From Escherichia coli (lineage in GTDB: Bacteria > Pseudomonadota > Gammaproteobacteria > Enterobacterales > Enterobacteriaceae): a DNA stretch of 64,000 bases. Every line of letters begins with the position of its first letter. Position 1 is the stretch's first letter. The stretch lies in assembly GCF_003334335.1 (NCBI RefSeq), contig NZ_QOWQ01000003.1; one strand, 5' to 3'. A model generated the notes under the pieces. It saw nothing but the letters and a program-made list of their open reading frames with translations. It ran no database searches and was not told the origin of the DNA. Shown here in pieces: positions 1-19,909 of this stretch. The position numbers and the translations under genes were made by a program.

Positions 1-76
1 ACGCGAGGCATCGTCTTAACGAGGCACCGAGGCGTCGCATTCTTCAGATGGTTCAACCCTTAAGTTAGCGCTTATG
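1..76 (+). mobile_element. IS186 (IS4 family) right end, partial at the window edge. The 23-bp terminal inverted repeat CAACCCTTAAGTTAGCGCTTATG lies at 54-76.
   Basis: Positions 1-76 match my recollection of the IS186 right end and finish in its terminal IR. The flanking target GGGTCAGGTCTCCCC fits the G-run/spacer/C-run target preference known for IS186. The terS-like reading frame loses its meaning exactly at 76/77. Confidence 0.75.
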
Positions 77-176
77 GGGTCAGGTCTCCCCGTTCCGCAA
101 GCTGCCGCGATTTTTCCCGCCACTGCTTCACGGCGATATCATCCAGGTAGGCGGGGGCTTTCGGTGGTCTTGCCAT
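77..176 (-). pseudogene. terS: 5' fragment (34 codons) of a P27-family small terminase gene, truncated by IS186.
   Basis: A minus-strand ATG at 174-176 (below the ORF-track size cut-off) gives MARPPKAPAYLDDIAVKQWREKSRQLAERGDLTP. This fits the N-terminal pattern of P27/Terminase_4 small terminases (RPPK, then L..A..W......L...G.LT). The frame runs straight into the IS186 IR, whose TAA (72-74) ends it. Confidence 0.55.
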
Positions 177-298
177 GCTTATTTTTCGTCAGATTATTTT
201 TCAAAAAATTCCCGTGCATAAAAATTTGGGGAGGCGTTCGGTGCCCGGCGGGGTCGGGTTTGTCCTGAAAACGCCCCCCACCCCGTCATACAGCCTCA

Positions 299-481
299 TC
301 AGCGATTGCGGAAACATTCCATAACCTCGCGGTCACGGTCGGTTAATCGCTTCGCTGTGATGCGTTCTGCGCGTCCTGACGCTTTATCTTTATGCCCTGT
401 TTCCTGTGTCTTCCATGCGTCACGCTGCCTTATAAGTCCACGGATAAGGCGGTTTTGTTCCCGCTCATTCATCAGCGTCAT
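299..481 (-). CDS. Hypothetical small protein (about 57-60 aa) between the HNH gene and terS.
   Basis: This is the 3' part of track ORF 299..703. An ATG at 481 (or 472) overlaps the HNH stop codon. The upstream part of the track ORF is just an alternative frame of the HNH gene. No family recognised. Confidence 0.35.
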   Translation of the reverse strand: MTLMNEREQNRLIRGLIRQRDAWKTQETGHKDKASGRAERITAKRLTDRDREVMECFRNR

Positions 482-905
482 ACATCCAGTTATTGCGGTT
501 AGCGGCCCGTTCTTCCTCTTCACGAAATCCACCTGCGGCACGCTTGCTTTTTGTTGCCGGATCAAGCCACTTCGTTTTCTGGTTATGACACGCCTGGCAC
601 AATGGCTGATGGTTCCATTCGGGCCAGAAGAGAACATCATCACCGCCATTAATCGGGATAATGTGATCCACCACCACGGCGGGCGTATATATCCCCTTCT
701 CAAGGCATCGCACGCATAACGGGTTTTTACTCAGATACATGGCGCGGTATTTTTCCCACTGTCTGGAGTACCCACGCGCGCGGCGGTGTCCTCGTCTGGC
801 ATCCTCTGCACGCCATGCCGCCCGCCTGTGCTCCTCACACTTGCCGGACTTAACGCGCCTGTTACAGCCTGGTTCTGTACATCGTCTTAATGGTTGCCAC
901 GGCAT
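465..905 (-). CDS. HNH endonuclease (packaging-associated).
   Basis: 146 aa with a Cys-rich N-terminus and an H-N-H core (VVDHIIPI ... WNHQPLCQACHNQKT). It sits immediately upstream of terS, as in HK97-like cos-packaging systems. Its start overlaps the preceding stop (ATGA). Confidence 0.85.
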   Translation of the reverse strand: MPWQPLRRCTEPGCNRRVKSGKCEEHRRAAWRAEDARRGHRRARGYSRQWEKYRAMYLSKNPLCVRCLEKGIYTPAVVVDHIIPINGGDDVLFWPEWNHQPLCQACHNQKTKWLDPATKSKRAAGGFREEEERAANRNNWMYDADE

Positions 906-1201
906 CAGTACACCCCCACATCACGGTAAGCCGTCCAGAGCGCGCCAATCGTCATGGGTACGCGCGTTTTTGCGTTATCCGCTACCAGCTGGCGATTCTC
1001 GTACAGGTGAGCGATAAACATCATGCAGCCAATCTTTATGGCTGGCGTGAACTCCAGCCCGTCATCAAAGCGCCTGCCTATATGTATCTGGCACGCCTCA
1101 AGCGATGCGGCAATGTATCCGCTGATTAACTGGTCTTCCTCGTCGCCATCGATGCGGCAATGGAGTTTCACTTCTTCCAGGGTGATAAGTTCTTCTGTCA
1201 T
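905..1201 (-). CDS. Head-tail connector protein (gp6-like, Phage_connect_1 type).
   Basis: 98 aa, MTEELITLEEVKLHCRIDGDEEDQLISGYIAA..., which is typical of gp6-like head-tail connector proteins. It is translationally coupled to both neighbours by 4-nt ATGA overlaps. Confidence 0.7.
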   Translation of the reverse strand: MTEELITLEEVKLHCRIDGDEEDQLISGYIAASLEACQIHIGRRFDDGLEFTPAIKIGCMMFIAHLYENRQLVADNAKTRVPMTIGALWTAYRDVGVY

Positions 1202-1536
1202 TTTTCCGCGCCCTCACGACAAAGAATTTCAAGGCGTGTCCTGGCGGCATCCGGCAGCGGTTGCCCGATGATATTCAGTACACGCCCCGCCAGCGGCCCC
1301 GTACTGACCTTTATCCGGCTGGTGGCGTTGATGTCCTTCCGGTACCGTATCCAGATCCTTACGGTACCAATCGCCAGCTCTGCACCCGATGAAATGGCCT
1401 CCTTGCTGCTGATCATGTTCACGCTTGCCCAGAGTGTGTGACCGTCCTCCCACGTTTCGAGTATTTCGCCGGTTATATCCCTGGTCTGTTTCAGGGTCTG
1501 AATCGTTACCCTGTCACGCAGTCGCCCTATGTTCAT
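1198..1536 (-). CDS. Head closure / head-tail adaptor protein (SPP1 gp16-like).
   Basis: Start taken at MNIGRLRDRVTIQ... (ATG 1534-1536, overlapping the portal stop). Length (112 aa) and the RDRVTIQ motif fit phage head-tail adaptor/head-closure proteins. Confidence 0.65.
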   Translation of the reverse strand: MNIGRLRDRVTIQTLKQTRDITGEILETWEDGHTLWASVNMISSKEAISSGAELAIGTVRIWIRYRKDINATSRIKVSTGPLAGRVLNIIGQPLPDAARTRLEILCREGAEK

Positions 1537-2744
1537 TCCGGTTTTTCTCCCTCGCTGATTTTTACTTCCTGTTTCCATGCCTGGCTGAACTCATCACCAC
1601 CATCACGCGGGGACAGCCCTTCACGTTCGCGGGCTTCGTTCGGGCACATAACGCCGGATTTGATGCCGCGTTCATAGGTGGCAAAGCGTTCGCCAGGTGT
1701 GGCCCGTAACAGGTCCGCGCTGTCAAACTCCACCTGATACCGGATACCAGGTACAGGCGAGGCCACCAGCAGGGCGTTTTTTATCTGCTGCTCAAAGTTC
1801 GCCAGCCACGGGCGCATTGTCATGGTGAGAAATGCGCGGCTTGCCTCGCTGAAATTGCTGTAGGTGCTGTTGCTGTATTCCTGCAGAAAAATCGGCGAGA
1901 CGTTGAACATTCGGGCGATGTCTTCAATGGTGAAGCGACGGGAGGCCAGCCATTCAGCATCCTGATTACTCATGCCCAGCTGCTGATAGCTCATACCCCC
2001 TTCAAGGATGGGCGTTTTTCCGGCGTTTCTGGCCCCTTTGTAGCGTTCCAGTGCGGCTAATGCCTGTTTGCCCTTCACGCCGTCCAGCCATTCGCCTGAC
2101 GTGATAACCCCTGCCGCCATCATGCCATCACGCATCACGCTCGCGCCGTGGCGTTGTTGGGCCAGCCCAAGCCCCAGCGATTCGCGGCAGATGGTTACAG
2201 GTGAGCGCCCCATAAAACCGTCATCCGTGGAGTAACGAAGGTGGAGAACCTCCCACGGTAAATAGTTGCGGGTGTTTCCGGTGTAGGCGTCAGTGATGCA
2301 GTAGCGCCAGTTGTGTTCGCCTGTCTGCTCCACGTTCACCGACTGCGGCGGGTAAGGATGTAAAGCCACCGGAAAACCATCACGCCCCCACTGAATCACC
2401 GCATAAGCATTACCGTTTAACAGGCAGTGGCGGATCATCATTCGCTTAAACTGGTAGGGAGTCTGCCACGCGTTCGGGCGCTCGTTGAGGATGTGATCGA
2501 CCGGATGAGAATCAAGCCACTCGCGGGCCTCCTTCCCCTTCTCATTGCGTACCAGGTACAGGTAACACGGCATGGTAGCCACCGCCTCAGAGATGACCGT
2601 CACGGCGTTCATGACGGCGGGCAGTGATTCCGCTGTCCCCGATGATACGTACTCACCCGCCCCCGTGTTCGATGTGCCAGCCAGCGCCATAAATTCATCA
2701 AGCGTCATGCTGCGCTGCTCTTTTTTTCTTCTGAAAAGCCACAT
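1533..2744 (-). CDS. Portal protein, HK97 family.
   Basis: 403 aa. The sequence and its position next to the prohead protease and HK97-type capsid gene fit HK97-family portals (Phage_portal). Confidence 0.85.
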   Translation of the reverse strand: MWLFRRKKEQRSMTLDEFMALAGTSNTGAGEYVSSGTAESLPAVMNAVTVISEAVATMPCYLYLVRNEKGKEAREWLDSHPVDHILNERPNAWQTPYQFKRMMIRHCLLNGNAYAVIQWGRDGFPVALHPYPPQSVNVEQTGEHNWRYCITDAYTGNTRNYLPWEVLHLRYSTDDGFMGRSPVTICRESLGLGLAQQRHGASVMRDGMMAAGVITSGEWLDGVKGKQALAALERYKGARNAGKTPILEGGMSYQQLGMSNQDAEWLASRRFTIEDIARMFNVSPIFLQEYSNSTYSNFSEASRAFLTMTMRPWLANFEQQIKNALLVASPVPGIRYQVEFDSADLLRATPGERFATYERGIKSGVMCPNEAREREGLSPRDGGDEFSQAWKQEVKISEGEKPE

Positions 2745-2745
2745 A

Positions 2746-3318
2746 TCACACCCCCGCTAAATCCACCCACCAGCGGCGATTATCCGCACGCGGCATTTTT
2801 TCGGGGTGCTGCTCATACAGGGAACGGCGGGCCAGCTCCACGCCGGAATCGGGGTAAGCCGGTACCGATGTAACGGTAATTTCGTACAGTTCCGCCACCA
2901 GCACGGTGCGCACGCATGGATCTGTTGTGGTATCCCATACATCCTTACGGGAGCGAAAGCCAAAGCTCATCCCCGAGATGTCCCCACGCTTAACCAGTTC
3001 GATAACGTCGCGCCCTGTACTGGTATCCGGTGGGGTCAGTTCAAAGCGTAACCCTGTTTCGTCCTCTTCCAGTTTCAGCGTGCCGGAACGGGTACGCCCC
3101 AGCAACATGCTGTGGTCATGCTCATACAGGCCGCGAACGTCATTACCCGCCGCAAGCCATTCAGTAAACGCTCCCCGCTGGAATTTTTCGTAAAACTCCC
3201 CCCATAGCAGCTCTGAAAGCTTATCCCAGCGAACAACGTAGCCTGTAAGCGTGTTGCTGGCGCTGGTGGTGATTTCCGATGACCGGATTTCCATACTCTT
3301 CATAATTTTTTCACCCAT
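2746..3318 (-). CDS. Prohead serine protease, HK97 family (Peptidase S78/U35).
   Basis: 190-aa track ORF. The more likely start is ATG 3303 (MKSMEIR, preceded by GGTGA). The family assignment rests on overall resemblance to HK97-family prohead proteases as I recall them and on its position between the capsid and portal genes. Confidence 0.85.
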   Translation of the reverse strand: MGEKIMKSMEIRSSEITTSASNTLTGYVVRWDKLSELLWGEFYEKFQRGAFTEWLAAGNDVRGLYEHDHSMLLGRTRSGTLKLEEDETGLRFELTPPDTSTGRDVIELVKRGDISGMSFGFRSRKDVWDTTTDPCVRTVLVAELYEITVTSVPAYPDSGVELARRSLYEQHPEKMPRADNRRWWVDLAGV

Positions 3319-3357
3319 AAAACACTAAAGGGGCTTTTAAGCCCCTTCTGTATGCTG

Positions 3358-4515
3358 TTAATCGTCGTCCTGTGGCAGTTCCAGAATCTTGATCGCGTTC
3401 GAATCCACCACGCCACCGCCTAAATATTTCTGCGTGAAAATTTTGATGAAGCCCGGCTCTGTGAGGTTGTCCGGTCTGGTGCGAACACCTGTTTCGTGAT
3501 CAACAATGTAGTAACCGCGTTTGAAGTCACCCAGGGCAATAACGTTATCAGGCATAAACTCCAGATATTCGACCGGAAGGCCCAGCAACGTATCAGGATC
3601 ACCCGCCTGTAAACGGTCACGCCAGATGTAATCACCGTTCGCGTTCTTCACCTTCTGGAGTTTTGCCGCCGTCGTGGAGTTAACCACCCAGACCGCGTTT
3701 TTGCGGTATTTTTTACGTAATGCAAATTTCAGGTCGATCAGCGGGTCCGCAGATGTCCACGCCAGAGATTCGGAAGGTTTAATTACCTGCAACGTACCAA
3801 AATCACGCTCTTTGTCGTTCTTCTCTGCACGGGGTACGGATAAAAAGCCTTTTGCTTTTTTGTCACCGTCGCCCACAACCAGATCGCTTTCTTCGGTTTC
3901 CGTGAAGGTGTCGCCAATCTCGCCCGTCAGCCATGAAAGGATGTCCACATCGGAAAAATCCACGATTTCCTGTGTGGTGCGCGGGTACGCATAGACCGGA
4001 TACAGCTTAATGCTCACCTCGTTAATCTGCGGGGTGCTGGTCTGTTCGCGTGTCTTACCCTCTTCACCGTGGTTAACGGTCGCACCGCCAGCGGAAACAA
4101 GCTGCTTAAACTCGTTGCTGCTGATTTTCTTCACGGTACAGATGCGGCGCATGGTGGATTCATCCGTCAGCATTCGCATGATTTCGGTGTTCAGTTCGGG
4201 GATAACGGTATAACCACCATCAGCGGGAACGCCTGTACTTAATGCGCGGGTTTCACCTGTCAGGATGTAGTTGCGGAGTTCTGCCGGGTCAGTGGTCTGG
4301 CTGCTTTTACCTGGCTTGCTGCGCTCTTCGTCTGCAATGGCTTCAAGGCGGGAAATGTCTTTATCGAGGGATTCAGCTTTAGCGCGTAATTCGTCAAATG
4401 TTGCGCCCTCAGCATCGTTAAGACTGCGGTTTTCTTTTTCCGCGTTCTCCAGCATGTCGCGCATCTGATTTTTAATGGCGGTTTTCTGCTGGCGTAATTC
4501 GATTATTCTCGGCAT
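3358..4515 (-). CDS. Major capsid protein, HK97 family, with an N-terminal scaffolding (delta) domain.
   Basis: 385 aa. A coiled-coil-rich N-terminal stretch of about 100 aa is followed by an HK97-fold-like body. This is typical of HK97-type capsid proteins that need no separate scaffold. Confidence 0.9.
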   Translation of the reverse strand: MPRIIELRQQKTAIKNQMRDMLENAEKENRSLNDAEGATFDELRAKAESLDKDISRLEAIADEERSKPGKSSQTTDPAELRNYILTGETRALSTGVPADGGYTVIPELNTEIMRMLTDESTMRRICTVKKISSNEFKQLVSAGGATVNHGEEGKTREQTSTPQINEVSIKLYPVYAYPRTTQEIVDFSDVDILSWLTGEIGDTFTETEESDLVVGDGDKKAKGFLSVPRAEKNDKERDFGTLQVIKPSESLAWTSADPLIDLKFALRKKYRKNAVWVVNSTTAAKLQKVKNANGDYIWRDRLQAGDPDTLLGLPVEYLEFMPDNVIALGDFKRGYYIVDHETGVRTRPDNLTEPGFIKIFTQKYLGGGVVDSNAIKILELPQDDD

Positions 4516-4554
4516 AAAAAAAGTCCTGGGGTTAAGTAAGGAACTCCAGGACGC
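4516..4554 (-). terminator. Terminator-like hairpin immediately upstream of the capsid ATG. Its 3' arm contains the capsid Shine-Dalgarno sequence.
   Basis: The minus-strand RNA reads GCGTCCTGG-AGTTCCTTACTTAACC-CCAGGAC-TTTTTTT-ATG. That is a 7-bp stem (4523-4529 / 4546-4552), a 16-nt loop and a U7 run. AGGA lies inside the 3' arm, 8 nt before the ATG. Confidence 0.45.
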
Positions 4555-4707
4555 GGCAAAAACTCAACCGTTTTTCATAAGGAAATCAGCAATCGCACCG
4601 ATCGTTTTCCCGCCTGGTAATGAATATTGGCGAGAACATTAACAGGCGGAAAAGTGGCCCCAGCGTCCTGGCACCACGGGCGAGAATAATCATGATTCAG
4701 TTCGGGT

Positions 4708-4806: not shown

Positions 4807-5031
4807 TCAGTCCCTGATCCCTTTCAGAAATTCTATCAATGCATCTATCTGTTCAGGATTTACCGCCAGCATTTCACCGGACAGAGCACATCTCACAAAA
4901 CCATGCTGATCCTTTTCAATCAGTGCGCCCGTCTCCAGGAATGCGCGGTAATCATTGATGCTCATCGTCTCCATGTTGTCAGCATGGTATTTATCACGCT
5001 GTTTTAATATCTCATCAAATTTCATCGGCAT
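4807..5031 (-). CDS. Hypothetical protein (74 aa) in a stand-alone cassette.
   Basis: Track ORF 4807..5109. The preferred start is ATG 5031 (MPMKFDEILK...), preceded by GAGGAAAA. It is bracketed by two near-identical terminators. No family recognised. Confidence 0.55.
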   Translation of the reverse strand: MPMKFDEILKQRDKYHADNMETMSINDYRAFLETGALIEKDQHGFVRCALSGEMLAVNPEQIDALIEFLKGIRD

Positions 5032-5125
5032 TGTTTTTTCCTCTGTTGTGTCTGTTTGTTTCAGATAGTAACTATGCCTGACCGTGACGAAAACCCGGTA
5101 ATGCGCCATACCGTTTCAACTGGTG

Positions 5126-5150
5126 CAAAAAAAGCCGGATTTCTCCGGCT
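5126..5150 (-). terminator. Rho-independent terminator after the perC-like gene.
   Basis: Minus strand: AGCCGGA-gaaa-TCCGGCT followed by TTTTTTTG. The stem is identical to the terminator at 4774-4796. Confidence 0.75.
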
Positions 5151-5156
5151 GTGTGA

Positions 5157-5429
5157 TTAGCTGTCCTGGTAATTTCGCCATATTTCATCACCAGCACCAT
5201 CCATACCCATTTCGGCATAAGTGCGATCGACCGCCTTTTTCAGGTCTCCGTAATTATCCGGCGGCTCCGGTGGCCTCTGTGCCTTCCTGGAACATTCCAG
5301 CCGTCGCATCGTAACCTGATGCCGTTCCTTGTCTGTCTCCACCAGCAGCATGACTTCACCCCATCGCGCCGACGCCCTCCGGTAAAAGCCTTTTGCCTCG
5401 AGTTCCTCCGCTATGCGGTCATGTACCAT
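5157..5429 (-). CDS. PerC-family transcriptional regulator-like protein (90 aa).
   Basis: Start taken at MVHDRIAEELEAKGFYRRASARWGEVM... (ATG 5427-5429, RBS GAGGGGG, 10 nt after the ssb stop). The AEELE..G.YRRA..RW.EV motif resembles PerC/Pch proteins. Confidence 0.6.
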   Translation of the reverse strand: MVHDRIAEELEAKGFYRRASARWGEVMLLVETDKERHQVTMRRLECSRKAQRPPEPPDNYGDLKKAVDRTYAEMGMDGAGDEIWRNYQDS

Positions 5430-5439
5430 CGTCACCCCC

Positions 5440-5850
5440 TCAGAACGGAATATCATCACCGTAGGGGTCATCGTCTCCCGCTGGTGGCTGATTACCCTGT
5501 GTGCCTGTGGTTTTGCGTCTGTTCCCGCCAGGACGTGCCGCACGGGCACTGATTACGCTGTCTGCAATAACCTGATACCCCTGTCGTGTTTCCCCGTTCT
5601 GTCCGGTCCACTGGCTTACCTGCATCGTGCCGGATACGCTGGCAACATCGCCTTTTTGATGTTTAGCCAGGAAATCGGCCTGTTTGCCAAATGCGATAAC
5701 CGATAACCATAACGTCGCCTGTCCGTCATGTGCTTGGCTGCATGGCAACGATACCGCCATACGCGCCAGAGTCATCGGTGTGCCCTTGCTGCTCTGTTTT
5801 ACCAGCGGGTCGTCCACCAGGCGCCCGTAAGCTGCAATTTGTGCTGTCAT
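5440..5850 (-). CDS. ssb: Single-stranded DNA-binding protein.
   Basis: 136 aa with an OB-fold-like N-terminus, a Gly/Pro/Gln-rich linker and the diagnostic acidic tail DDDPYGDDIPF. Confidence 0.9.
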   Translation of the reverse strand: MTAQIAAYGRLVDDPLVKQSSKGTPMTLARMAVSLPCSQAHDGQATLWLSVIAFGKQADFLAKHQKGDVASVSGTMQVSQWTGQNGETRQGYQVIADSVISARAARPGGNRRKTTGTQGNQPPAGDDDPYGDDIPF

Positions 5851-5859
5851 ATTGCCACC

Positions 5860-6165
5860 TCAGTGAAGCGATCCGGCGTTGTTCTTTTTCATCTCTTCCA
5901 TCATTTTTTCAGTGAGCATTACGCACTGAAAACCCATGTTTTTGATGTCTACGGGTTTCATGCCTTTGTCAGTGGATATCACAGGCAGAATATCCTGATA
6001 CACATCGCGGTCAGGGTAACTAAGCACACAAAGCGCCCATGATGCCACGGGTGAGGATCCTTCGTCTGTTTCAACCCACCAGCCTGGTGTAGCTGCGCTT
6101 ATTTGCTGAATCGTGATCCGTCCGTTGTGCTTGTAAAGTTTTTCACCAAATTTTGGTTCGCTCAT
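5860..6165 (-). CDS. Hypothetical protein (101 aa).
   Basis: Track ORF in the same operon. Its start overlaps the upstream stop by 4 nt (6162-6165). No family recognised. Confidence 0.5.
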   Translation of the reverse strand: MSEPKFGEKLYKHNGRITIQQISAATPGWWVETDEGSSPVASWALCVLSYPDRDVYQDILPVISTDKGMKPVDIKNMGFQCVMLTEKMMEEMKKNNAGSLH

Positions 6166-6413
6166 GATTCCAACTCTCCGGTTTTAACGTTGATTGTTGT
6201 TACCTGTTCCGCTTCGGCAATCTCACGTTCTGTCAGCGTGGCAAAGTTTGCCGCTGCTGTGGTCATGAATGCGCTTATCAGGTCGGGATGTTCTTTCGCG
6301 TATCCTTCCCCCGCGTGGCGGTCTATCGTTCTGATTGCCACCTTTAAGGCGTGCTCTGTCATGTCTAACGCTTTATATTTTGGCTCTGTTCTGTCTCTGT
6401 GTTTTTGAGTCAT
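6162..6413 (-). CDS. Hypothetical protein (83 aa).
   Basis: Track ORF 6162..6545. The start is moved to ATG 6413 (MTQKHRDR...) because the upstream 44 codons lie in the iteron array. Confidence 0.45.
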   Translation of the reverse strand: MTQKHRDRTEPKYKALDMTEHALKVAIRTIDRHAGEGYAKEHPDLISAFMTTAAANFATLTEREIAEAEQVTTINVKTGELES

Positions 6414-6617
6414 TTGCCCACCTCTACCCACTTTTTTCGCCCACTTTTTACGTTTTCCCACTTCGTCCAACGTGGGAAATTTGGGATTTATATCATCTTG
6501 TTTCATAGGTATTTTTTTAGTGCCCACTTTTTGGGATATATACACGTGGGAAAGTGGGTAATTTTGTTAAAATTACGTTAAATCGCCCACCTTTCCCACT
6601 TTTAATGCCCACTTTTT
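6414..6617. repeat. Iteron array, the probable satellite origin of replication.
   Basis: There are 11 copies of the core CCCAC(T/C)TT. Eight are direct (about 6416, 6427, 6439, 6456, 6522, 6585, 6594, 6607), several as GCCCACTTTTT. Three are inverted (6472, 6546, 6554). They flank an AT-rich spacer (6480-6521). The array starts on the stop codon of the rep helicase gene. Confidence 0.7.
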
Positions 6618-8013
6618 ACAGTGGTCCTACATCATCACCGTCAATGTAGATCACGTCGTCTTTTTCCAGTTTGGCTAACCATCGTTTAAGGTGTTTTGTG
6701 TCATACCCCAGCTTTTTCATATCGTCACGTAACAGCGGGATCGTGCACTTGTCGCCGTGCTGTGTGCGTGAACGTATGCACCCCCATAGCGCGGTATGGT
6801 TTTCCGTCTTGTTGCCTGCCTCCTCGATGCGCTCCAGTTCAACGGGAGGGCGCGGCTTATCCACCACCACCAGCGACGTGATTAACTCCCCGTCAGCGTC
6901 GGTAAAAAGCTCCACCACCCGCAAATCATAGGCAGCCTCTTTGAGTTCCTCCGCGTCCTTCATTTTGGTGCATGAGATAACCAGCGCTTCGCTTCCTGCG
7001 TCCTCCCTGCGTATCCGGTATTCAGCATCCAGCGAAGCACGAAATGCACTGGAACCGCGCGCGCCTTTCGTCTCATCCTTGCCGGAATGGTGAACCACCA
7101 GCACCGTGGCCCCTGTGCGCCGTTTAAGCTCGTCACACCCACGGATAAACGCCCCCATATCACGGGAATCATTTTCATCATTGCCACCAAAGCAACGCGC
7201 CAGAGTATCAAGAATAATCATGCGTACAGGTTTACCCGTTTCCCGCTCCACCTGACGGGCAGCGATAACCAGTTCATCAACATCAAGCGGGACAGCCGGA
7301 AAAACTGGACGGTTTACCAGATACAGATTTTTCACCTGCTCACCGTGCACAACCTCCCAGGCTTTTACACGACGCGGAACGCCGATACCGCCTTCACCAA
7401 CCACATAGAGAACAGCGCCATGCGCCACCCTGCGGCCTCCCCACTGGCGGCCCGTGGAAACGTGACACGCCCACGAACCCGCAAGGAATGATTTATAGGA
7501 ACCGCTTGCCCCGTATATGCTGCATAGCGACGATGCCGGAATAATCCCCTTTACCACGTAATCTAATTGCGTGTCGTATCCGGCAGATCCAACGCTCATC
7601 GGTAGCGTGGTTTTTCGCTGGTGGTGTTCTTCCCCTGGCTTTTTCCCCCGCTCCCGTTCCAGATATTCGCGCCAGTTCTCCCGCTTCTGGCTGTGTATCC
7701 CTTCGGGGTAATAATTCGCATCAGTTACGCCCGCCGCCGCCAGCTTGTGCGCAATGGCATTAATATTTGATGGCCTGATGTGGCCTGCCTTGTACAGCCG
7801 GACACAATAGCGCCCCTCGTCGATGATTCTCAGGTCTGCCAGTTCATCCAGTTGATCATCAGCCAGCACAATGGGAGGCACATTATCGCCAGCCAGTCGC
7901 CCGTCCTGTTCCTGCCACTGTTTCGCATGTGCCCACGCATCACTACCCGCAAAAATGATGACTTCGGTCATCTTGTCGTAAGGCTGTTTTTTTAAGTTCG
8001 GTGCGCTTTTCAT
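6616..8013 (-). CDS. Replication initiator/helicase, RepA-like (AAA_25 / RecA-fold ATPase).
   Basis: 465 aa with Walker A GASGSYKS and Walker B MIILD, followed by VVHHSGKDETKGARGSS, typical of RepA/AAA_25 helicases of plasmids and satellites. I could not recognise a primase (toprim/EGYATA) motif in the N-terminal 150 aa. Confidence 0.8.
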   Translation of the reverse strand: MKSAPNLKKQPYDKMTEVIIFAGSDAWAHAKQWQEQDGRLAGDNVPPIVLADDQLDELADLRIIDEGRYCVRLYKAGHIRPSNINAIAHKLAAAGVTDANYYPEGIHSQKRENWREYLERERGKKPGEEHHQRKTTLPMSVGSAGYDTQLDYVVKGIIPASSLCSIYGASGSYKSFLAGSWACHVSTGRQWGGRRVAHGAVLYVVGEGGIGVPRRVKAWEVVHGEQVKNLYLVNRPVFPAVPLDVDELVIAARQVERETGKPVRMIILDTLARCFGGNDENDSRDMGAFIRGCDELKRRTGATVLVVHHSGKDETKGARGSSAFRASLDAEYRIRREDAGSEALVISCTKMKDAEELKEAAYDLRVVELFTDADGELITSLVVVDKPRPPVELERIEEAGNKTENHTALWGCIRSRTQHGDKCTIPLLRDDMKKLGYDTKHLKRWLAKLEKDDVIYIDGDDVGPL

Positions 8014-8309
8014 TTCTTGCCCCTGAATCCGTTAATCATGTTTTTCATCTTCTGAATATTGGCGCGTGCTTTCTCCCTGCTGGTGGGCACGTTACGCGGT
8101 ACGGCCTGCACCAGAGAAAAATCACGCCGGAACTGATAAACAGGCATCACGCAATCATATTCGTAACTTTCACGACGGTAGGTTACGCGCCGTTCCTCCA
8201 CGCCCTTAATCATTACCGTGCCGCCGTACTGGTCGCGGTAAATATCACCGCGCGTAAATTTAGGGTGAGTGTTGCCACTGGCAGTTAAGCCAGAATATTT
8301 AAGTTTCAT
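8010..8309 (-). CDS. Small protein (99 aa), possibly DUF4222-like.
   Basis: Track ORF whose stop overlaps the rep start (8010-8013). The central YRD..G..V.I..V...RVTYRRE.YE..CVMP...F motif resembles prophage DUF4222 proteins. The family call is tentative. Confidence 0.5.
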   Translation of the reverse strand: MKLKYSGLTASGNTHPKFTRGDIYRDQYGGTVMIKGVEERRVTYRRESYEYDCVMPVYQFRRDFSLVQAVPRNVPTSREKARANIQKMKNMINGFRGKK

Positions 8310-8314
8310 TATTT

Positions 8315-8548
8315 TTATTCTCCGGTGTGCTGTTCGTTATATCTGTCGTGCAATGTCTCTATTTCTTGTAGTTCCATTATTACAGGCTCAAGAAGCGTTA
8401 TTAATGCCGTGACAATTCTTGATTTTTGTTTGTCGCGTTCATTGTCGCCAAGTGTTTCAAGCCATATGCGCAATATTTCCAGCATGTTTTCACTGTGAGA
8501 AAGTGCAAGAAATACGCGTTCTGTTGTTTCGTGGTAAATATCACGCAT
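8315..8548 (-). CDS. Hypothetical protein (77 aa).
   Basis: Track ORF in the co-oriented early operon. No family recognised. Confidence 0.45.
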   Translation of the reverse strand: MRDIYHETTERVFLALSHSENMLEILRIWLETLGDNERDKQKSRIVTALITLLEPVIMELQEIETLHDRYNEQHTGE

Positions 8549-8620
8549 GGCTTACATCCTCAGGAAATTTTCTTCTGTAACGCGCCTCTGCCACATATTC
8601 CGCATAATCGGCGGCGATAT

Positions 8621-8773
8621 TCAGTACATCAAGCCCGTTGATTTATATTCTCTCGTGGAAAGTAAGAAAAAAGCCGCTCTAATAAGTTCTGGCATTGACG
8701 AAAGCGCATCAGCCGCATCATCAGGAACGCCGGAAAATTCTTGTTTCAGGGAATTAAAACGATCATCACGCAT
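8621..8773 (-). CDS. Hypothetical protein (about 50 aa).
   Basis: Track ORF 8621..8821. The start is placed at MRDDRF (ATG 8773), which overlaps the upstream stop (ATGCGTGA). Weak call. Confidence 0.3.
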   Translation of the reverse strand: MRDDRFNSLKQEFSGVPDDAADALSSMPELIRAAFFLLSTREYKSTGLMY

Positions 8774-8996
8774 AACCCCCCCCATTTTCACAATCAGCAA
8801 CAAGAATATTTTTAGCGTCATTCAGCGACCGCGTTGCGGTGTATCGGATACATTCCAGGGCGAATAGTGTGTATTCTTCCCTTTCTTCCCTTTCTTCCTT
8901 TTGTGCAAGCTCTGCTGTGCATTCAATATCAATAAGCGCGTGCATCAGCGTAGTGAGTGCGGCGGCGGCTGCGTCCGGTGTGGTTTTATTGCACAT
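8766..8996 (-). CDS. Hypothetical acidic protein (76 aa).
   Basis: Track ORF 8766..9050. The start is placed at MCNKTT (ATG 8996), preceded by GGAGGGG. It contains an EEREEREE acidic stretch. Confidence 0.4.
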   Translation of the reverse strand: MCNKTTPDAAAAALTTLMHALIDIECTAELAQKEEREEREEYTLFALECIRYTATRSLNDAKNILVADCENGGGYA

Positions 8997-9216
8997 GTAC
9001 CCCTCCGCATTTTTTTTCGTTAGAAATAAGCGTTCTTCTTTCCTGTTCATCGATCAGGAATACGCAGACCTCACCGCTAAGGCGTTTAAGTAAGCCGATG
9101 ATTGCCCCTGATTCGCTGTCGGTCATCATGCCTGGGTAATCCTCTGCCAGTGCGCAAATAACTTCGATTTGGTGGGCGCGTTCTGCTGCCTGTTGTAGTG
9201 TGATTTCCTGGCTCAT
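8986..9216 (-). CDS. Hypothetical protein (76 aa).
   Basis: Track ORF. Its ATG overlaps the stop of the icd-like gene (ATGA at 9213-9216). Confidence 0.45.
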   Translation of the reverse strand: MSQEITLQQAAERAHQIEVICALAEDYPGMMTDSESGAIIGLLKRLSGEVCVFLIDEQERRTLISNEKKCGGVHVQ

Positions 9217-9413
9217 AAGCCTACCCCCTGACGAATACGGGCAGCGAATACCATCACGCAGCCAGCCGGGGATTGCAGGCGTGCTTCCTGTTCGCTGGTG
9301 GCCTCAATGGTAATCACGCGCGGTTGTGCAGTGCTCAGGGCGATAAAACGCCAAATGTATTTATTCAGGTTGTGCGAGTCCCGCCCTTGCGGGTGTGTGG
9401 TATGATTTCTCAT
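9213..9413 (-). CDS. Icd-like (P4-type cell division inhibitor-like) small protein, 66 aa.
   Basis: These are the last 66 codons of the 340-aa track ORF (MRNHTTHPQGRDSHNLNKYIWRFIAL...), with a GAGG RBS. They resemble proteins annotated as Icd-like in P4-like elements, as I recall them. This is the first gene downstream of the leftward promoter. Confidence 0.55.
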   Translation of the reverse strand: MRNHTTHPQGRDSHNLNKYIWRFIALSTAQPRVITIEATSEQEARLQSPAGCVMVFAARIRQGVGL

Positions 9414-9510
9414 AGCTACCTCGATACTCTCGTTATCGTTGGTGGTTAGAAGCCCGGTTAGTGTTAGCGCACTGCCGGGTTTCGTCGTTTCTGCACCTTG
9501 CGCCAACAAG

Positions 9511-9583
9511 GTGTTGAACACCAATTTAAACCCAGGTGTTAAACACGTCAAGTGTTGAACACTTATTTTTTTTCCTGCATACT
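9511..9583. promoter_or_regulatory. Back-to-back divergent promoters with three 11-bp palindromic operators.
   Basis: GTGTTGAACAC lies at 9511-9521, GTGTTAAACAC at 9536-9546 and GTGTTGAACAC at 9552-9562. The leftward promoter has -35 TTGACG (9546-9551) and -10 TAAATT (9523-9528) with a 17-bp spacer. The rightward promoter has -35 TTGAAC (9555-9560) and -10 CATACT (9578-9583) with a 17-bp spacer. Confidence 0.6.
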
Positions 9584-9612
9584 GCATTTGTTTTTTATGA
9601 GGGGTACACCAC

Positions 9613-9792
9613 ATGGCGACAAAAGCAGTAAACGCAAAATCACAAACCGTTGCGGCAAGGGTTCCGCATGAAGTTATGAACAATGTTGAGGCGGTAAAAA
9701 TGCCTGGCGAAAGTACGGGGCAATTTGTTACTGCAGCATTAAAACGAGAAGTTGAATATCGCCAGCGGCGCAAGGCCAAAGAACCAGAGTAA
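9613..9792 (+). CDS. Ribbon-helix-helix (CopG/Arc-like) DNA-binding protein, 59 aa. Candidate satellite repressor.
   Basis: Not in the ORF track (<60 aa). ATG at 9613 with GAGGGG upstream. MATKAVNAKSQTVAARVPHEVMNNVEAVKMPGESTGQFVTAALKREVEYRQRRKAKEPE shows the strand / helix / G-x-S-x / helix pattern of RHH proteins. It is the only plus-strand gene next to the operators. Confidence 0.55.
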   Translation: MATKAVNAKSQTVAARVPHEVMNNVEAVKMPGESTGQFVTAALKREVEYRQRRKAKEPE

Positions 9793-9849
9793 TCACCATC
9801 AGCGCCGTGGTGTAAGGTATTACGGCGCATTGCTATGCAGGACAACACA

Positions 9850-10023
9850 ATGACCGATAAAGAATTGACCAAAACATTATCACCGGCACGGAAAAGACGG
9901 CGCAGAAAGATAGAGCATGAATCAGAAAGATTCGCGCCATGTGCTTTTGCCCTTGAGCAATTCCTTAAAGAGTACAGGGAAAAGCGCTCATTGCAGGTAT
10001 GGCAACGAACTGAACCAGACTGA
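9850..10023 (+). CDS. Hypothetical basic protein (57 aa).
   Basis: Track ORF 9835..10023. ATG 9850 has AGGA 7 nt upstream. It carries an RKRRRRK stretch and is co-oriented with the RHH gene, before a strong terminator. Confidence 0.35.
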   Translation: MTDKELTKTLSPARKRRRRKIEHESERFAPCAFALEQFLKEYREKRSLQVWQRTEPD

Positions 10024-10118
10024 TAGCATTGCCCACCAGCCTGATAGCGACTATCATTGCCGTTCTTATGTTTGGGATCACACACACAAACGGCGCAGCG
10101 GGTTATCTGTTCAGAAAG

Positions 10119-10146
10119 GCGGCTCCATTTCGGGGCCGCTTTTTTT
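10119..10146 (+). terminator. Rho-independent terminator of the short rightward (RHH) transcription unit.
   Basis: GCGGCTCC-atttc-GGGGCCGC (8-bp stem with one G-U pair) followed by TTTTTTT. Confidence 0.75.
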
Positions 10147-10292
10147 ATACCTGAAAAACCCCAATTTTGTTGTTTTTCAGTTTCACCAGGGCGAACGAAT
10201 CCCCGCCCACGTTCTGGCGTATATTCAATCTTCATGGTTATAGCTCTGTGTTCAGATGATTGATGTGTGGCGGCTGCGTGCCGCCAGCGTGA

Positions 10293-10481
10293 TTAATGAA
10301 CTGCCTTGCAGCTATCCTTCCAGGCCAGAACCTCGGATAAAGACCAGCCAACGGAACGACCGCCAAGTTTACGACGTGATGGGAATTGTCCGGCCTTTTC
10401 CAGGCGGTAGCGACACGTACGGCTAAGGCCGGTTAGTTTTTCGCATTCTTTTTCACGTATAAACCGATCAGTGCTTAACAC
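10293..10481 (-). CDS. alpA: AlpA-family (MerR-type HTH) phage/satellite transcriptional regulator.
   Basis: The C-terminal 62 aa read LSTDRFIREKECEKLTGLSRTCRYRLEKAGQFPSRRKLGGRSVGWSLSEVLAWK, a classic AlpA signature. The likely start is GTG 10481, preceded by AGGGGGG. The track ORF extends to ATG 10562. Confidence 0.8.
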   Translation of the reverse strand: MLSTDRFIREKECEKLTGLSRTCRYRLEKAGQFPSRRKLGGRSVGWSLSEVLAWKDSCKAVH

Positions 10482-10632
10482 TATTGCCCCCCTTTCGTTT
10501 CTTAAAGAGTCATCAGGTGTCTTATTGTGTCGTATTGTTCCCGCTAGAGTGATGAATGGCAAATATTGAGGATGTATTATTTACAGAAAATGAAACAGTA
10601 AGAATAAAATCTTTTAAATTCATGTTAATACA

Positions 10633-12076: not shown

Positions 12077-12099
12077 GTTTTACCCCCTCTTTACGAAAA

Positions 12100-12123
12100 A
12101 GTGACTACACCAGTGACTACACC
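12100..12123. repeat. Tandem 12-bp repeat AGTGACTACACC x2 between int and the att junction. Candidate integrase arm-type sites.
   Basis: Exact tandem duplication seen at 12100-12111 and 12112-12123, within the 175 bp that separate the int start from the tqsA junction. Confidence 0.4.
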
Positions 12124-12251
12124 GATCGTTGCACAAAGGGCTACAACGTGAAACAAGCTGGAACAAGGAAAATCACAAATCTGTTGATAATCAAAAACAT
12201 AATGCACAGCCTGAAACATTATGAAACAGCAAAAAACACTAAATGATAAAA

Positions 12252-17767: not shown

Positions 17768-19150
17768 ATGGAAAAGAAACTGGGACTGAGCGCACTCACC
17801 GCGCTGGTATTAAGCTCAATGCTGGGCGCGGGTGTTTTCAGTCTGCCGCAAAATATGGCGGCAGTTGCCAGCCCGGCAGCACTGCTCATCGGCTGGGGTA
17901 TTACTGGCGCTGGCATTTTATTGCTGGCCTTTGCCATGCTGATCCTCACGCGCATTCGTCCCGAACTTGACGGCGGTATCTTTACCTATGCCCGCGAAGG
18001 GTTTGGCGAGCTAATCGGCTTTTGTTCCGCATGGGGATACTGGCTGTGCGCAGTCATCGCCAACGTCTCCTATCTGGTGATCGTTTTTTCCGCGTTAAGC
18101 TTTTTTACGGACACGCCGGAATTGCGCCTGTTTGGCGATGGTAATACCTGGCAATCGATAGTCGGTGCATCGGCTTTATTGTGGATTGTTCACTTTTTGA
18201 TCCTGCGCGGGGTGCAAACCGCTGCCAGCATTAACCTGGTGGCGACACTGGCAAAATTGTTGCCGCTGGGTCTGTTTGTTGTGCTGGCGATGATGATGTT
18301 CAAACTGGATACCTTCAAGCTCGACTTCACCGGACTTGCACTTGGCGTACCCGTTTGGGAACAGGTGAAAAACACCATGCTGATCACCCTGTGGGTTTTC
18401 ATTGGTGTGGAAGGTGCCGTGGTTGTTTCTGCGCGTGCGCGTAATAAACGTGATGTTGGCAAAGCGACACTGCTGGCGGTTCTCTCCGCTCTGGGCGTTT
18501 ACTTGCTGGTAACGCTGCTTTCGCTGGGTGTGGTGGCACGTCCTGAACTGGCTGAAATTCGTAACCCGTCAATGGCCGGTCTGATGGTGGAAATGATGGG
18601 ACCATGGGGCGAAATCATCATCGCTGCCGGTTTGATCGTTTCCGTTTGCGGCGCGTACTTAAGCTGGACCATCATGGCAGCAGAAGTACCGTTCCTGGCC
18701 GCCACTCATAAAGCATTCCCGCGCATTTTTGCGCGCCAGAACGCACAAGCTGCGCCATCCGCCTCACTGTGGTTGACCAACATCTGCGTGCAAATTTGTC
18801 TGGTACTCATCTGGCTGACCGGTTCCGATTACAACACGTTGCTGACCATCGCCTCAGAAATGATTCTGGTGCCCTATTTCCTGGTCGGCGCGTTCTTGCT
18901 GAAAATCGCAACCCGTCCACTGCATAAAGCGGTAGGTGTCGGTGCCTGCATTTATGGCTTATGGTTATTGTACGCCTCTGGTCCAATGCACTTGCTGTTA
19001 TCCGTTGTTCTGTATGCACCGGGGCTGCTGGTTTTCCTGTACGCGCGCAAAACGCATACCCATGATAATGTACTGAACCGTCAGGAAATGGTGCTGATTG
19101 GCATGCTGTTAATTGCCTCAGTTCCGGCGACCTGGATGCTGGTGGGATAA
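17768..19150 (+). CDS. ydgI: Putative arginine:ornithine antiporter (APC family).
   Basis: 460 aa polytopic membrane protein. Matches K-12 YdgI (ArcD-like). Confidence 0.93.
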   Translation: MEKKLGLSALTALVLSSMLGAGVFSLPQNMAAVASPAALLIGWGITGAGILLLAFAMLILTRIRPELDGGIFTYAREGFGELIGFCSAWGYWLCAVIANVSYLVIVFSALSFFTDTPELRLFGDGNTWQSIVGASALLWIVHFLILRGVQTAASINLVATLAKLLPLGLFVVLAMMMFKLDTFKLDFTGLALGVPVWEQVKNTMLITLWVFIGVEGAVVVSARARNKRDVGKATLLAVLSALGVYLLVTLLSLGVVARPELAEIRNPSMAGLMVEMMGPWGEIIIAAGLIVSVCGAYLSWTIMAAEVPFLAATHKAFPRIFARQNAQAAPSASLWLTNICVQICLVLIWLTGSDYNTLLTIASEMILVPYFLVGAFLLKIATRPLHKAVGVGACIYGLWLLYASGPMHLLLSVVLYAPGLLVFLYARKTHTHDNVLNRQEMVLIGMLLIASVPATWMLVG

Positions 19151-19186
19151 CGTTCATCCCATCGTTGGATAGCAAAGGAGATAACG

Positions 19187-19909
19187 ATGGGTAAAACCCA
19201 GCCCTTGCCAATATTAATTACTGGCGGAGGTCGTCGCATCGGCCTCGCCCTCGCATGGCATTTCATTAATCAAAAGCAACCGGTGATTGTCAGCTATCGG
19301 ACACACTATCCAGCCATTGATGGACTGATTAATGCAGGTGCGCAGTGTATTCAGGCTGATTTTTCGACCAACGACGGTGTGATGGCGTTTGCCGATGAAG
19401 TACTAAAAAGCACCCATGGTCTGCGTGCTATTTTGCATAACGCCAGTGCGTGGATGGCGGAAAAACCGGGTGCGCCACTGGCCGACGTACTGGCTTGCAT
19501 GATGCAGATCCACGTTAATACCCCATACCTGCTCAACCATGCGCTGGAAAGATTACTGCGTGGGCACGGACACGCCGCCAGCGATATCATTCACTTTACC
19601 GATTATGTGGTGGAGCGCGGTAGCGACAAACATATTGCGTATGCTGCAAGCAAAGCGGCACTGGATAATATGACCCGCTCGTTTGCCCGCAAGCTGGCAC
19701 CGGAAGTGAAAGTGAATTCTATTGCGCCATCGCTGATCCTGTTTAATGAACATGATGATGCCGAATATCGACAACAGGCGCTGAATAAATCACTGATGAA
19801 AACCGCGCCTGGCGAGAAAGAAGTGATCGACCTGGTCGATTACTTACTTACCAGTTGCTTTGTCACCGGACGCAGTTTCCCACTTGATGGCGGTCGTCAT
19901 CTGCGTTAA
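19187..19909 (+). CDS. folM: Dihydromonapterin reductase / dihydrofolate reductase FolM (SDR family).
   Basis: 240 aa. Matches K-12 FolM (YdgB). Confidence 0.93.
   Translation: MGKTQPLPILITGGGRRIGLALAWHFINQKQPVIVSYRTHYPAIDGLINAGAQCIQADFSTNDGVMAFADEVLKSTHGLRAILHNASAWMAEKPGAPLADVLACMMQIHVNTPYLLNHALERLLRGHGHAASDIIHFTDYVVERGSDKHIAYAASKAALDNMTRSFARKLAPEVKVNSIAPSLILFNEHDDAEYRQQALNKSLMKTAPGEKEVIDLVDYLLTSCFVTGRSFPLDGGRHLR

Follow-up and report, generated by a model that had tools for sequence, protein, structure and literature searches.

In proteobacterial capsid-forming PICIs (cf-PICIs), the genes for capsid, protease, portal and head connectors are arranged in this order and are followed by hnh-terS-terL (10.1101/2022.09.08.507074). 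The prototype is EcCIEDL933 of Escherichia coli O157:H7 EDL933, which is 15.4 kb in size and whose packaging genes include those for HNH and for the small and large terminases (10.1101/2022.09.08.507074). It is the only element for which induction by a helper phage, and transfer in small satellite-encoded capsids fitted with tails of the helper, were shown (10.1101/2022.09.08.507074). Its packaging-module genes were mutated one by one. All mutants lost transfer except that of gene 1792, in which it was severely reduced; they replicated normally and left the helper phage unaffected, no PICI-sized packaged DNA was found, and transfer was restored by complementation in trans (10.1101/2022.09.08.507074). 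Mutation of the homologous genes of the helper eliminated phage transfer and kept island transfer (10.1101/2022.09.08.507074), which indicated that the packaging systems of satellite and helper are independent. HNH, TerS and TerL are needed for the HK97-type cos packaging of helpers such as HK106, and the same has been stated for cf-PICIs. The packaging proteins of these helpers were reported to be non-interchangeable with those of the satellite, so that rescue by a helper TerS is not expected.

The stretch of DNA analysed here (the window, 64 kb) opened 76 bases inside a copy of IS186, and the right end of this copy was precise and abutted codon 34 of terS. The island behind the junction is a cf-PICI of the EcCIEDL933 type, located in tqsA next to pntBA. 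The overall explanation, to which we assign a probability of about 85%, is that IS186 cut terS of this cf-PICI, most likely by simple insertion, and that the island lost its own packaging. The locus is best annotated as an EcCIEDL933-type cf-PICI in tqsA, with terS as a pseudogene interrupted by IS186. Its features are listed in Table 1.

Table 1. Features of the disrupted island and of the adjoining IS186 end, in window positions (a dot marks features given without strand).
Feature	Position	Strand	Basis
IS186 right (insL-distal) end	1..76	+	76/76 with K-12 IS186A
IS186 23-bp terminal inverted repeat CAACCCTTAAGTTAGCGCTTATG	54..76	.	Exact at both K-12 IS186 ends
Truncated terS, 34 codons + TAA	72..176	-	34/34 with WP_000113645.1 N-terminus
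Putative copy of 10-bp target-site duplication GGGTCAGGTC	77..86	.	By analogy with other IS186 copies
Candidate cos/packaging-recognition intergenic region, G/C-rich	177..298	-	Position; intact in window
60-aa conserved ORF between HNH and terS	299..481	-	100% with EcCIEDL933 copy
HNH endonuclease, packaging module	465..905	-	PF01844, E=1.8e-8; 98.6% with EcCIEDL933
Head-tail connector (gp6-like)	905..1201	-	Pfam (PF05135/PF05521 for the pair with head closure); full length vs H19
Head closure protein	1198..1536	-	Pfam (PF05135/PF05521 for the pair with gp6-like connector); full length vs H19
Portal	1533..2744	-	Pfam (PF04860, PF04586, PF05065 for portal, protease and capsid as a trio)
Prohead protease	2746..3318	-	Pfam (same trio)
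Major capsid protein	3358..4515	-	Pfam (same trio)
Regulation/replication part	4807..10481	-	Full length vs H19; Pfam assignments of the same genes in relatives
RepA-type helicase	6616..8013	-	Full length vs H19
AlpA-type HTH	10293..10481	-	Full length vs H19
Tyrosine integrase, 409 aa	10847..12076	-	99.5% with H19 island integrase
att repeat at integrase end of island, in split tqsA (ydgG) beside pntB	12094..12134	.	

On the minus strand, from 12076 to 77, the gene order was int, alpA, small ORFs (one Icd-like), DUF4222, RepA helicase, SSB and PerC, then capsid, protease, portal, head closure, gp6-like connector, HNH, the 60-aa ORF and terS. The part between 4807 and 10481 comprised a 74-aa ORF, PerC, SSB, the RepA-type helicase, DUF4222, small ORFs, an Icd-like protein and the AlpA-type HTH. 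Integrase, AlpA-type regulator and replication module were thus found at one end of an island that had its own capsid, protease, portal, connector and hnh genes, terS as a 5' fragment, and terL beyond the window. Between the att repeat (12094-12134) and the junction there was no tail or lysis gene. The att repeat was exact at the integrase-side end of the island in strain H19, which is bordered by tqsA fragments; the repeat at the far end of that island (L002, 5107-5146) matched it over 41 nt (90%). The visible 12.06 kb together with the ~2.9 kb expected from H19 (L002, 5107-8000) amounted to an island of ~15 kb.

The sequence-only reading had held that the integrase, switch, replication module and capsid genes of the satellite were intact, and this was borne out for the part of the island in the window. 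All 21 annotated genes on the corresponding side of the H19 island, from the 60-aa ORF to the integrase, were present at full length in the window, with protein identities of 87-100% except for a diverged YlcI/YnfO-like ORF. Portal, protease and capsid were full length and 99-100% identical to those of both H19 and EDL933. The 60-aa ORF was found in 11,015 blocks of the indexed assembly collection, and in all ten places shown it lay between HNH and terS. An ORF of 340 aa without a Pfam family was observed between alpA and the small replication-side ORFs (9213-10235, minus strand), and a 59-aa ORF with weak similarity to YlcI/YnfO was nested in it on the plus strand (9613-9792). This pair was also called in L039, L041, L045 and L046, and in the annotation of H19 this region is an Icd-like pseudogene.

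The intergenic region at 177-298 contained nested inverted repeats (229-238/270-279 and 249-258/276-285) and was near-invariant across six island variants with differing replication modules. The cos site was not mapped in the description of the cf-PICIs (10.1101/2022.09.08.507074); by its position, this region is a candidate for cos or for the terminase-recognition site.

EcCIEDL933 was located in the EDL933 chromosome (NZ_CP008957.1, 1680329-1694760) between roxA and phoQ. It resembled the window island in gene order (int-alpA-rep...SSB-PerC-capsid...HNH-60-aa ORF-terS), and its packaging module was 98.5% identical at the DNA level to window bases 77-4600. The packaging proteins shared 96-100% identity (98.6-100% for capsid, portal, protease, HNH and the 60-aa ORF), and the N-terminus of TerS was identical over 34 residues. 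The two islands differed in site, replication protein and integrase. EcCIEDL933 occupies the roxA-phoQ site, whereas the window island lies in tqsA beside pntB; EcCIEDL933 has a DUF927 replication protein, whereas the window island has a RepA-type AAA_25 helicase; and the integrases are 91% identical. In addition, terS is intact in EcCIEDL933, whereas that of the window island is cut by IS186. Close relatives were the intact islands in tqsA of H19 (NZ_AP027165.1) and of the draft genomes L041, L042, L044, L046 and L048, which shared the insertion site and RepA with the window island; the latter five were 99.7% identical to it in DNA over 15.9 kb. All six had a full 118-aa terS without IS186, whereas terS in the window was truncated.

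A survey of E. coli complete genomes and of loci L030-L048 showed that the near-identical packaging module was joined to at least four replication types (AAA_25 RepA, D5_N/DUF5906, D5_N/DUF5906/Pox_D5 and DUF927). It also occurred in at least three chromosomal contexts, namely tqsA-pntB, roxA-phoQ and, in L033, beside thiamine-kinase-like genes.

IS186 belongs to the IS4 family; copies in K-12 are IS186A, IS186B and IS186C, and the lon promoter is a hot spot in E. coli B. The last 76 bases of K-12 IS186A (L008, 1654-1729) were the same as window bases 1-76 at every position (script comparison, and 100% by blastn), and their counterpart in K-12 is downstream of the insL1 stop codon. Bases 54-76 were the exact reverse complement of the 23-bp perfect terminal repeat of IS186, CATAAGCGCTAACTTAAGGGTTG. 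In reverse complement, CAACCCTTAAGTTAGCGCTTATG was also the left end of K-12 IS186, and IS186 copies of other genomes ended in the identical 23-mer. The IS186 right end and the 23-bp repeat had been proposed from the letters alone at these same positions, and both were confirmed. The remaining ~1,263 bases of the element lie to the left of base 1, outside the window. The insL transposase gene would be found there, reading towards the junction and convergent with terS. A start 76 nt inside IS186 is what one would see if a short-read contig broke off in a collapsed repeat; the source is probably a draft assembly, whose record may never show the left side of the IS.

In every comparison made, homology of the island DNA to intact relatives began exactly at base 76/77. 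The junction read IS186/GGGTCAGG, and the uninterrupted sequence across the same site was GACCTGACCCCCGCCGACTGG. When the window was aligned with O157:H7 strain 2571, which has an intact island, homology started from the run GGGGTCAGGTCTCCCC, where the intact island reads ...CCAGTCGGCGGGGGTCAGGTCTCCCC...; the breakpoint against the closer relative L041 was identical.

The minus-strand ORF from 176 to 72 translated to MARPPKAPAYLDDIAVKQWREKSRQLAERGDLTP, that is, 34 codons and then a TAA supplied by the IS. The stop lay within the IS186 terminal repeat, in the context ...ACC C/CA TAA GCG, where the slash marks the junction; bases 77-176 belonged to terS, and the CA of codon 34 and the stop were derived from the IS. 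Intact islands encode here a 118-aa protein, WP_000113645.1 ('phage terminase small subunit P27 family'), and all 34 residues of the ORF were the same as its N-terminus; this protein is the TerS of EcCIEDL933, strain H19 and strain 2571 alike. The claim that the interrupted ORF is the terS of the satellite was thereby upheld. The intact 118-aa TerS matched Pfam PF05119 (Terminase_4) over residues 16-110 (E=1.3e-23), and the stump retained ~19 of the 95 residues of this domain. A Pfam search with the 34-aa stump alone gave no match, including to the P27-family profile, so its identity as TerS was drawn from the intact homologues. What the window contains is therefore a piece of a P27-family member, not a functional member. 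In uninterrupted E. coli islands, which the sequence-only reading had named as the proper comparison, the full 118-aa terS was followed by a gene for a 553-aa TerL that overlapped it by 17 nt, and then by a 93-aa ORF; terL came directly after terS in 18 of the 18 intact relatives examined.

The ORF at 72-176 has a start and a stop codon and nothing more to suggest that it is a complete, unrelated small gene with nothing interrupted. Its residues are the first 34 of a 118-aa TerS that is conserved across hundreds of genomes, and its stop sits inside the IS186 terminal repeat at the point where homology to intact islands breaks. An unrelated small gene was refuted by these three results.

The target preference of IS186 was measured from its flanks at 21 loci in species-representative genomes and in K-12. 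The usual flank directly past the IS186 end was GG-N6-CCCC, and copies with both flanks visible had 10-bp duplications in GGGG-N6-CCCC targets. The flank here, GGGTCAGGTCTCCCC, was similar in its G and C runs but read GG-N9-CCCC, with the C run 3 bases further out than usual. In the intact target CGGCGGGGGTCAGGTCTCCCC the arrangement was G5-N8-C4; the runs were 8 bases apart, and only one half-site was at the standard distance. If the duplication was 10 bp (GGGTCAGGTC), the far flank would read GA-N6-CCCC past the IS end, and the G5 run would have the standard spacing. The target therefore matched the preferred one in part: of the earlier proposal that IS186 had chosen its favoured G-run/C-run target, the G/C-run character stood, whereas the spacing departed from GG-N6-CCCC.

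The window shows only the right side of IS186, and the left IS end, the duplication, the 3' part of terS and terL are inferred. It is likely that the insertion was simple and that the rest of terS and terL are found behind the IS. IS186 would have transposed into the G5-N8-C4 site in terS, and beyond the 1.34-kb IS one would most likely find the 3' remainder of terS, then terL, the 93-aa ORF and the other att site. The other junction would then read ...CTCCAGTCGGCGGGGGTCAGGTC(TCC) joined to CATAAGCGCTAACTT, followed by terL; more specifically, GCGCTTATG would be followed by GACCTGACCCCCGCC if the duplication was 10 bp and by GGAGACCTGACCCCCGCC if it was 13 bp.

A less likely course of events is that a deletion or rearrangement, bordered by IS186, arose after the insertion or via recombination between IS186 copies, and that the 3' part of terS, terL, the 93-aa ORF and attR were lost or moved. 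Neither distal island sequence nor a second IS186 copy was present in the 64-kb window; however, the window extends rightwards only, and the absence of distal sequence in it is uninformative. None of the collections searched contained the other junction, but this reflects the absence of the source genome from them. Packaging genes do decay in relatives, as with the 27-aa TerL deletion in four of five and the split capsid gene of L030 described below. On the other hand, the exact IS end in a plausible IS186 target is what primary transposition predicts, and most genomic IS copies are simple insertions, which we counted against a deletion. If a deletion had occurred, the island would have no terminase subunit and would lack one att site, and normal excision would be impossible.

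The start of the window also raises the question of the assembly. A leftover of 76 nt would fit the edge of a repeat in a short-read assembler with k=77, and in many strains draft contigs are broken within the 5' part of terS. A collapsed IS186 repeat k-mer could then have been misattached at the contig end, with the real terS intact. Such an artefact is very improbable. The IS stops at its exact last base, terS begins at once after it, and the site has a G run and a C run such as IS186 uses. In addition, de Bruijn contigs hold only k-mers of reads, so that reads spanning the IS end and terS must exist, and an intact terS would have run on as ...GACCCCCGCC.

IS186 in terS very probably leaves this copy of the island without self-packaging and spread. 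The loss of self-packaging, which had been proposed before, is backed by the mutant data of EcCIEDL933 (10.1101/2022.09.08.507074). Since the TerS protein is the same as in EcCIEDL933, we infer that the window island is unable to start packaging. Upon helper induction, the island should remain able to excise, to replicate and to assemble small procapsids, but packaging of the island DNA would fail to start, and no autonomous transfer would follow. The expression of terL, which would now lie behind 1.3 kb of antisense IS186, would probably be reduced too, because the IS runs against the packaging operon and terS and terL are normally coupled. A terminator scan of IS186 found one hairpin with a T-run on the strand of island transcription (L008, 1176-1157), a count within chance, and as a sign of polarity on terL it gives a weak hint. 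The suggestion that the island might interfere with its helper did not fare well, since EcCIEDL933 did not block helper phages: neither the titre nor the plating of the helper was reduced by this element (10.1101/2022.09.08.507074). Helper interference by the window island is thus unlikely.

Two further outcomes can be imagined for the disrupted island. A co-resident cf-PICI with identical TerS and TerL could package it in trans, which would make it a dependent of another satellite, or the host could retain an island that a helper induces to make capsids but that is unable to leave. Packaging in trans is conceivable because the upstream candidate cos region and the capsid and replication genes are all intact. 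Co-residence does occur: among the complete E. coli genomes, the 701-bp probe described below hit 558 places in 515 genomes (~8% excess), up to 5 per genome. Nothing within the 64-kb window supported a second cf-PICI in the source strain, and we regard the two outcomes together as improbable.

The disruption was searched for in several collections. A megablast of window bases 1-1500 against 5,426 complete E. coli genomes showed 355 genomes covering at least 80% of the query; the best matches, up to 99.8% identical, all spanned bases 76-1500, and none of them included bases 1-75. The 701-bp probe centred on the site was found in 515 of these 5,426 genomes. Each of the 515 carriers covered at least 80% of the probe, the terS region was interrupted in none of them, and all 60 sampled rows had essentially full coverage (99.7-100%) in one piece. 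No IS186 junction at the terS site was present in the complete E. coli genomes in either orientation (a synthetic junction was used for the opposite one), and none was present among the 21 loci with IS186 ends in species-representative genomes. Exact and gapped junction patterns found no match in viral contigs or in metagenome contigs. When the exact proteins (34-aa stump, 60-aa ORF and RepA) were looked up, the matches were all either fragments at contig ends or intact islands. The terS disruption is rare and specific to a strain or lineage and, with 0 of 515 complete genomes interrupted, it is probably recent. The same count bears on the idea that the island is on its way to domestication, which is speculation: it points to a rare, recent accident and to no trend. 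An intact terS in all 515 carriers suggests that function is maintained in these satellites or that they are young, and that decay at terS is not common.

Five draft contigs belonging to different island variants ended at most 3 nt from the site, and the target specificity of IS186 is strong, as would be expected if terS were a recurrent IS186 hot spot and its inactivation a selected route to island domestication. We consider this barely credible. N-terminal TerS fragments of 27, 29, 30, 32, 33, 34, 36, 37, 46, 50, 51, 53, 54 and 55 aa were found, each on 2-14 contigs, and the 34-aa form, on 4 contigs, was not enriched. This indicated that contigs break all over the terS region. None of those contig ends carried IS186 sequence, and two of the contigs ran on intact. 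The spread of fragment lengths and the uninterrupted complete genomes, which had no IS186 junction in either orientation, largely refuted terS as an IS186 hot spot.

The window island is a natural knockout of a gene in the packaging module, which experiments showed to be needed for transfer in EcCIEDL933-type satellites, and studies of packaging or trans-complementation could use its source strain as a ready-made control. It is an ordinary case of gene inactivation at an IS186 boundary; a known element has gained a further disrupted allele, with little significance beyond annotation.

Changes in packaging genes were also observed in related islands. Four of the five closest intact relatives (L041, L044, L046 and L048) had a 27-aa in-frame deletion in TerL, which removed residues 203-229 (NGVYSALELGMGARPEGLLFAITTSGS) in the ATPase domain (terL at 18178-19758, compared with 18178-19839 in L042). 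With this deletion, packaging may already be impaired in part of the lineage. In L030 (GCA_040493315.1), where the island lies beside phoQ, the capsid gene (5967-7124) was split into ORFs of 275 aa and 109 aa, and terS (10239-10565) was called at 108 aa; here the packaging module decayed by another route.

Exact IS186 ends were also seen on short, often low-coverage contigs (L010, L019, L022, L024, L026 and L028) in draft genomes of Marinobacter, Kocuria, Bradyrhizobium, Streptosporangium, Enhygromyxa and Corallococcus, all of them non-enterobacterial. Several of the flanks were identical to an E. coli chromosomal flank; GGAGTGATCCCCGCCACTTTACAGGTG, for instance, borders K-12 IS186A on the dnaJ side. 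The IS186 ends in these assemblies look like E. coli contamination.
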